NCBI RefSeq assembly: GCF_013167455.1
Contig: NZ_CP038328.1
Origin: Escherichia coli O157:H7
Lineage (GTDB): Bacteria > Pseudomonadota > Gammaproteobacteria > Enterobacterales > Enterobacteriaceae
Reading direction: 5' to 3' (one strand)
Length of the DNA stretch: 64,000 nt
A program made the translations under genes and the position numbers. How positions within the stretch are numbered: position 1 is the stretch's first letter; the number at the start of each line of letters is the position of its first letter. This document shows, piece after piece, positions 8,976 to 9,043 of the stretch. Under the pieces are notes generated by a model, which had not been told where the DNA came from, made no database searches, and worked only from the letters and a program-made list of their open reading frames with translations.

Positions 8976-9015
8976 TACTCCATCCTTAGATTATACTAAA
9001 TTTTGTATAAATCAA
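8976..9015 (-). promoter_or_regulatory. Putative sigma70 promoter and RBS of the toxin-antitoxin operon
   Basis: On the minus strand, TTGATT-like -35 (plus 9010-9015), TATAAT -10 (plus 8990-8995) and AGGATGGAG RBS before the toxin ATG; spacer about 14 bp, which is short. Confidence 0.4.
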
Positions 9016-9043
9016 ATGCGCAGTTTGAACCTGCGCATTTGAT
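9011..9043. promoter_or_regulatory. Perfect 13-bp inverted repeat: candidate TA operator and/or yegH terminator
   Basis: ATCAAATGCGCAG (9011-9023) / CTGCGCATTTGAT (9031-9043) around a 7-nt spacer; lies directly downstream of the yegH stop and overlaps the putative -35 of the TA promoter. Confidence 0.5.

Follow-up and report, generated by a model that had tools for sequence, protein, structure and literature searches.

The window analyzed here is a 64,000-nucleotide stretch of Escherichia coli O157:H7 DNA, matched at 100% identity by several O157 chromosomes, in which a toxin-antitoxin operon lies between yegH and asmA. The gene yegH (9050-10633, minus strand; stop codon at 9052-9050) encodes a membrane protein with TerC, CBS, and CorC domains. 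It is followed on the same strand by the toxin gene (8637-8975; 112 amino acids in the RefSeq annotation), which is of the Gp49 type within the RelE/ParE superfamily (PF05973, E = 1.2e-30). The antitoxin gene (8357-8647, minus strand; 96 amino acids in the RefSeq annotation) encodes a helix-turn-helix protein of the HTH_37/XRE type (PF13744, E = 5.4e-22), and its first 11 nt are shared with the end of the toxin gene. The nearest solved relative of the antitoxin is 2a6c (E = 3.9e-14); its matches are confined to DNA-free helix-turn-helix structures (2a6c and 2o38), and no relative of the toxin was found among solved structures. asmA lies on the plus strand, ends with a stop codon at 8304, and is convergent with both the operon and yegH. 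Read along the minus strand, the order is yegH, a short spacer, a 13-bp hairpin, an AT-rich palindrome, a -10 hexamer, the toxin gene, the antitoxin gene, and a second hairpin. This second hairpin (8313-8348; ATATAGATGGCGGCA-N6-TGTCGCCATCTGTAT) has 15-nt arms that are 87% complementary. It sits between the stop codon of asmA (8304) and that of the antitoxin gene (8357), where it likely terminates transcription of both asmA and the toxin-antitoxin operon.

The 13-bp hairpin is encoded at 9011-9043, where the plus strand reads ATCAAATGCGCAG-TTTGAAC-CTGCGCATTTGAT. The two arms (9011-9023, ATCAAATGCGCAG, and 9031-9043, CTGCGCATTTGAT) are fully complementary and enclose a 7-nt loop. The repeat begins 6 nt past the yegH stop codon and ends 35 nt ahead of the toxin ATG. 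A perfect palindrome at this place had been claimed in the original prediction, and the claim holds at a level beyond chance. With up to three mismatches allowed, the pattern occurs once in the 64-kb window and in none of 100 shuffled versions. The window has no more than two perfect inverted repeats with arms of 10 bp or longer and loops of 3-10 nt, and a repeat of 13 bp or longer appeared in just 2 of 200 first-order Markov simulations of it. The surroundings also agree with the original description: in the minus-strand direction, a 6-nt spacer separates the yegH stop (9052-9050) from the hairpin, which is followed by the toxin promoter region.

The toxin-antitoxin genes occupy the asmA-yegH site in 792 of 5426 complete E. 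coli genomes. In genomes without this cassette, the entire asmA-yegH spacer consists of an unrelated REP-type sequence of 273, 292, or 451 bp. When the cassette-bearing sequence is aligned with three cassette-free strains (L001, L002, and L003), homology stops exactly at the stop codons of asmA and yegH, and no target-site duplication is seen at the junctions. Since the whole spacer is exchanged in the cassette-free strains, the hairpin belongs to a strain-specific segment of 745 bp (8305-9049). With hairpins at both 8313-8348 and 9011-9043, the strain-specific cassette is thus bracketed by two terminator-like structures. Within E. coli the 13-bp hairpin is single-copy (a median of one place per genome) and is found only in cassette-bearing genomes. 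A metagenome scan returned two contigs with the hairpin, both adjoining yegH. A scan of viral contigs gave no matches, and a scan of species-representative genomes yielded unrelated, convergent hairpins only and no source for the 13-bp element. Apparent plasmid matches in E. coli turned out to be chromosome fragments carrying asmA and dcd. We also considered whether the flanking hairpins might be mobile-element ends or attC sites and rejected this reading; the two are unrelated in sequence, and the junctions lack a target duplication.

The architecture of the repeat is that of an intrinsic terminator. Its center is a 7-bp GC-rich core, TGCGCAG/CTGCGCA (9017-9023 paired with 9031-9037, loop 9024-9030), with five G-C pairs. 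This core is placed between ATCAAA and TTTGAT, which form the A- and U-tract halves of the element (9011-9016 and 9038-9043). Past the core, the minus-strand tail is TTTGATTTAT and the plus-strand tail TTTGATGTTT, with seven T residues in ten on each. When folded as RNA with its flanks, the hairpin has a predicted energy of -23.4 kcal/mol on the minus strand (z = -6.0) and -20.1 kcal/mol on the plus strand (z = -5.2); in a 60-nt segment the values on the two strands are -20.9 and -21.0 kcal/mol. No other strong hairpin is present between yegH and the toxin gene, and the stable, GC-rich stem-loop lies just 3' of the yegH stop codon. Beyond the full 13-bp stem, only UUAUAC is left as a tail on the minus strand, and a consensus scan flagged a terminator on the plus strand only. 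If the full stem forms, the minus-strand tail is weak; yegH termination may therefore be partial.

Bidirectional intrinsic terminators have A-rich tracts that mirror the U-tract and a peak of GC content just ahead of the U-tract (PMC12207403). The element at 9011-9043 shares with them a GC-rich stem-loop, U-rich sequence beyond the core, a mirroring A-tract, a site after a stop codon, and a folding energy of about -21 kcal/mol (PMC12207403). ATCAAA and TTTGAT mirror each other around the core, and the two strands fold equally well. Because ATCAAA mirrors the U-tract, the 7-bp stem extends to a perfect 13 bp and the plus strand also becomes terminator-like. The genetic setting is different. Bidirectional terminators are found between convergent genes, whereas this hairpin is flanked directly by two minus-strand genes, yegH and the toxin gene; asmA, which is convergent, is separated from it by 700 bp that include the toxin-antitoxin genes. 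The U-tracts of the 13-bp hairpin are also broken by G and A, and its U-tract half coincides with the nominal -35 of the next promoter.

The same design recurs elsewhere. The 10-bp stem AAATGCGCAG-N7-CTGCGCATTT is present in 29 unrelated genomes (Aquimarina and Chryseobacterium are examples), against an expected count of about 0.3 by our own estimate, which assumes uniform base composition. In most of the 29 genomes the stem has an A-run upstream and a T-run downstream. We read this recurrence as convergent evolution of one terminator design. The other perfect short-loop repeat of the window (61705-61737, AAAGCCCCCGGAAG-GTGAT-CTTCCGGGGGCTTT, 14 bp) likewise has an A-tract/GC-stem/T-tract layout; it lies just upstream of a minus-strand ORF that starts at about 61692.

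The REP and extragenic palindromes of the cassette-free asmA-yegH spacer take the same post-yegH position and also form hairpins. They differ from the 13-bp element in being multi-copy, imperfect, and without U-tracts, whereas the latter is single-copy, perfect, and flanked by A and U; the many copies per genome that define a dispersed repeat are not found for it. The pattern ATCAA...TTGAT might suggest an FNR site (consensus TTGAT-N4-ATCAA). This reading was rejected, as both the orientation and the spacing are wrong. An Rfam scan of 8200-9200 gave a single chance-level match (STnc40, 20.6 bits against a gathering score of 45, E = 0.9). On the plus strand, at 8969-8997, there is a promoter-like site (TTCTCA-17-TATACT) that is created by the putative operator palindrome (8991-9010) and aimed into the hairpin. 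It would yield a hairpin-only RNA of about 45 nt (8986-9043). The site is probably a chance occurrence, because the number of promoters called equals the shuffle expectation and the STnc40 match has an E value of 0.9.

Natural variation in the hairpin is sparse. The reference allele, a perfect palindrome, is carried by 710 cassette-bearing E. coli records. A C-to-U change at 9035 (yegH-sense strand) occurs in 53 of about 790 records; it replaces a stem pair by G.U in the yegH-sense RNA (-19.0 kcal/mol) and by an A.C mismatch in the plus-strand RNA (-15.6 kcal/mol). Beyond this allele, six further variant genomes were sampled. Several of these have an A-to-C change at 9012, which opens the second pair from the base of the stem and is perhaps present in about 22 records by an indirect estimate. 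A few variants fall in the loop (9025), and one sampled variant lies in the spacer flank (9044). The GC core is intact in every sampled allele. The 9035 and 9012 alleles break the dyad symmetry of the DNA and keep the RNA stem. This pattern fits a hairpin in yegH-strand RNA rather than a symmetric protein site, at a level of E. coli diversity too low for covariation statistics; the one wobble-compatible SNP, at 9035, is anecdotal, as real covariation would need more variation than the species offers. Strains SCEC020007 and SW07096 (loci L004 and L128) have toxin genes annotated with a frameshift, and both retain the candidate operator palindrome without change. The hairpin of SCEC020007 is also unaltered, and that of SW07096 has only the loop SNP at 9025.

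The toxin-antitoxin promoter has a -10 hexamer, TATAAT (8990-8995, minus strand), which is placed in the same way relative to the AT-rich palindrome in homologous loci. The nominal -35 at a 17-nt spacing is CATTTG (9013-9018, minus strand), a poor match to TTGACA that falls in the U-tract half of the hairpin. The original prediction had the palindrome overlapping the putative -35 of the toxin promoter. This is correct as to position, in that 9018-9013 lie inside the promoter-proximal arm. It is less secure as to the element itself, since CATTTG is a poor hexamer and a consensus scan called no minus-strand promoter at the toxin-antitoxin locus. In E. coli, 6 nt separate the -10 from a mini-ORF, ATG-GAG-TAA, and the toxin ATG overlaps the TAA of this ORF (8973-8995; ATGGAGTAATG). 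This arrangement suggests a near-leaderless start or translational coupling. In many homologues (L054, L062, L063, L068, L069, L005, and L131), only 5-7 nt separate the end of the -10 from the first codon of the toxin gene, a spacing that suggests leaderless toxin mRNAs.

A second palindrome adjoins the hairpin on its promoter side. This is an AT-rich, near-perfect palindrome of 20 bp, TTATAC-AAAATTTA-GTATAA (8991-9010), in which nine of ten positions pair and which overlaps the -10. It has a family-wide distribution. We collected homologous modules from Salmonella IncFII and other plasmids (toxins 76-82% identical), from a locus between uvdE and umuC-like genes, from plasmids of Pantoea, Erwinia, and Serratia, from 52 viral-contig loci with a toxin identity of at least 43% (40 of them distinct), and from the characterized Tad-Ata locus of the Paracoccus plasmid pAMI2 (37% identical). 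Of 48 distinct loci, 43 have a relaxed form, TAY-N8-RTA, no more than 80 bp from the toxin start; in two control windows placed upstream, only 1 and 4 of the 48 have it. The palindrome reads TTATACAAAATTTAGTATAA in E. coli and in the Salmonella loci L010-L012, TTATACGAAATTTTGTATAT in the Salmonella plasmid locus L015/L016, TATACG-N6-CGTATA in Erwiniaceae, TACAAAATTTTGTA in many Proteobacteria, and TATACCTGAACAGGTATA in pAMI2 tad-ata. The family form, TATAC-N8-GTATA, overlaps the -10 in every case and is kept from Paracoccus pAMI2 to Enterobacterales. Half-site changes between lineages are mostly symmetric (for example, ACA...AGT versus ACG...CGT), as is expected for the site of a dimeric repressor. 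We consider the palindrome at 8991-9010 to be the probable operator of the antitoxin. In two viral contigs (L088 and L094), two operator palindromes, TACAAATACTTGTA and then TATAAGTATTTGTA, stand in tandem upstream of the toxin gene, which suggests that these lineages have a double operator.

The 13-bp repeat behaves differently in the same comparison. It is absent upstream of all the homologous Gp49/HTH_37 modules collected here, its arm sequence is restricted to E. coli among the 48 distinct loci, and neither half of it resembles TTATAC. An upstream hairpin of unrelated sequence does occur in some homologous loci, namely in pAMI2 (after parB), in L065, and in the Serratia locus L008. The arrangement of a hairpin before the promoter recurs, and the hairpin sequence does not. 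In pAMI2 (L131, 150-240), the parB stop codon is followed by a hairpin (GAAACCATG...CATGGTTTC), TTGAAA, TATAC-N8-GTATA, and ATG, a layout like that in E. coli. Many homologous loci have a good -35 (TTGACT, TTGTCA, or TTGCCA) directly upstream of the palindrome. In E. coli, TTGATT (9015-9010) adjoins the palindrome and is only 14 nt from the -10, which is too close for a canonical sigma-70 -35. A TTGNNT hexamer abuts the palindrome in several loci: TTGATT in E. coli, TTGAAT/TTGCTT in L010 and L015, and TTGGAT, 2 nt further upstream, in L119. The 9012 allele changes TTGATT to TTGCTT, the form found in the Salmonella plasmid locus L015.

In its reversed gene order, in which the Gp49 toxin gene precedes that of a helix-turn-helix antitoxin, the module resembles the HigBA/Tad-Ata systems of Gp49 type that include MtHigA3, A. 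baumannii HigBA2, and pAMI2. A search with phmmer detected no sequence relation to MtHigA3. The palindrome over the -10 (8991-9010) shares the form TATAC-N8-GTATA with pAMI2 tad-ata. The 13-bp repeat has no counterpart in HigBA/Tad-Ata operators, and the likeness concerns 8991-9010 only. HigA3 of Mycobacterium tuberculosis shifted DNA containing the -10 box but did not shift a GC-rich palindrome located ahead of the -35 (PMC7340258). In the HigBA2 system of A. baumannii, the operon promoter is repressed by the antitoxin (PMC5906591). A full-text literature search for one variant of the operator sequence found no paper, and none was found that treats yegH, asmA, and the antitoxin together; a search for Term-seq or 3' RACE data from cassette-bearing strains likewise returned nothing; a paper on the transcriptome of EHEC under ciprofloxacin does not mention the asmA-yegH locus.

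We conclude that the 13-bp palindrome is probably (at a rough probability of two in three) a Rho-independent terminator hairpin of the bidirectional type at the 3' end of yegH. Other explanations have to be weighed against this. The original prediction proposed a dual element, in which the antitoxin or the toxin-antitoxin complex binds the 13-bp palindrome at the -35 while the same structure in the transcript terminates yegH. The repeat is indeed within the region where RNA polymerase contact is expected (nominally -27 to -60), its dyad symmetry is perfect, it lies in the cassette-specific segment, and autorepression by an antitoxin is known for a Gp49-type system (PMC5906591). We nevertheless consider a dual role highly improbable. 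The repeat occurs in none of about 47 other loci, in which a different palindrome is conserved instead. Its half-site is unlike TTATAC, the 9035 and 9012 alleles are asymmetric as DNA, the centers of its arms are 20 bp apart, and its stem is GC-rich and terminator-like. MtHigA3, moreover, did not bind the upstream GC-rich palindrome of its own promoter (PMC7340258). The terminator half of the proposal is borne out in silico by the anatomy of the element, its position 6 nt past the stop codon, and the recurrence of its stem. The operator half is not: the repeat is absent from homologous modules, does not resemble the palindrome that they conserve, and has natural alleles that are asymmetric as DNA.

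The hairpin might instead protect the 3' end of the yegH transcript from exonucleases or make RNA polymerase pause, with the transcript ending elsewhere or reading through. Such a role has been suggested for REP elements and for collision-type "bidirectional terminators" that lie between convergent genes, and collision-dependent terminators have been described as pause sites in E. coli (bioRxiv 10.1101/2022.10.23.513370). The interrupted U-tract (UUUGAUUUAU) would be in keeping with such a role, as would the REP-type and GC-rich hairpins without U-tracts in the cassette-free spacer. Partial termination, at least, usually needs no more than a stable hairpin with UUU after it. The succession of A-tract, GC stem, and U-tract is canonical for intrinsic termination, and the element is single-copy, unlike REP; a stabilizing or pausing function in place of termination is thus unlikely. 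It is very unlikely that the palindrome serves an unrelated DNA-binding protein of the host, or that it came with the cassette from a donor genome and has no function. Its presence in the strain-specific 745-bp segment, and an origin that genome, viral, and metagenome scans did not trace, would be compatible with this. To our knowledge, though, it matches no known motif. The perfect stem has been kept across E. coli phylogroups, in SCEC020007 with its frameshifted toxin gene, and in a metagenomic lineage that is more divergent, and a terminator fully explains the anatomy of the hairpin. One further idea links the hairpin to the promoter directly, since its U-tract half doubles as the -35/UP region of the toxin-antitoxin promoter. 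Polymerase coming from yegH and pausing or terminating here, or the palindrome itself when it melts or extrudes, could occlude or stimulate the weak -35. We regard this as a distant prospect; if true, it would couple expression of the module to yegH activity, independently of the antitoxin.

Under the preferred reading as a terminator (predicted for yegH on the minus strand, 9011-9043), RNA polymerase leaving yegH would transcribe the stem UGCGCAG/CUGCGCA with its 7-nt loop, followed by the U-rich tail UUUGAUUUAU, and the 3' ends of the yegH transcript are predicted at about 9010-9002. In the plus-strand direction, the corresponding tail would be UUUGAUGUUUU. The hairpin would shield the downstream Gp49/HTH_37 operon from yegH read-through, so that the operon, as we propose, stays under its own autoregulated promoter. 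It would also stop plus-strand transcription, whether antisense or read-through from asmA, from entering yegH. With yegH and the toxin gene co-directional, it is because of such putative read-through or antisense transcription that action in both directions would be needed. In this scheme the -10 of the toxin-antitoxin promoter is perfect, its weak -35 falls within the U-tract half of the hairpin, and the antitoxin would repress the promoter at 8991-9010, as the conservation of that site suggests. Autoregulation is most likely exerted at the 8991-9010 palindrome and not at the 13-bp repeat. The hairpin and the toxin-antitoxin genes share the strain-specific segment, and the function of the hairpin may be linked to the module.

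Taken on its sequence features, the 13-bp element would be an ordinary member of a well-known class of terminators. It illustrates that the A-tract/U-tract symmetry of a two-way terminator alone can produce a long, perfect palindrome. Studies of autoregulation in the Gp49-HTH_37 module of O157 and UPEC strains should target 8991-9010 and not the GC-rich palindrome, and in promoter fusions the inclusion or exclusion of the hairpin should be deliberate. The apparently leaderless toxin mRNAs are a modest by-product of the comparison. A further by-product is a candidate operator consensus for the whole family, TATAC-N8-GTATA over the -10, which extends from the Tad-Ata system of Paracoccus to the module of E. 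coli.
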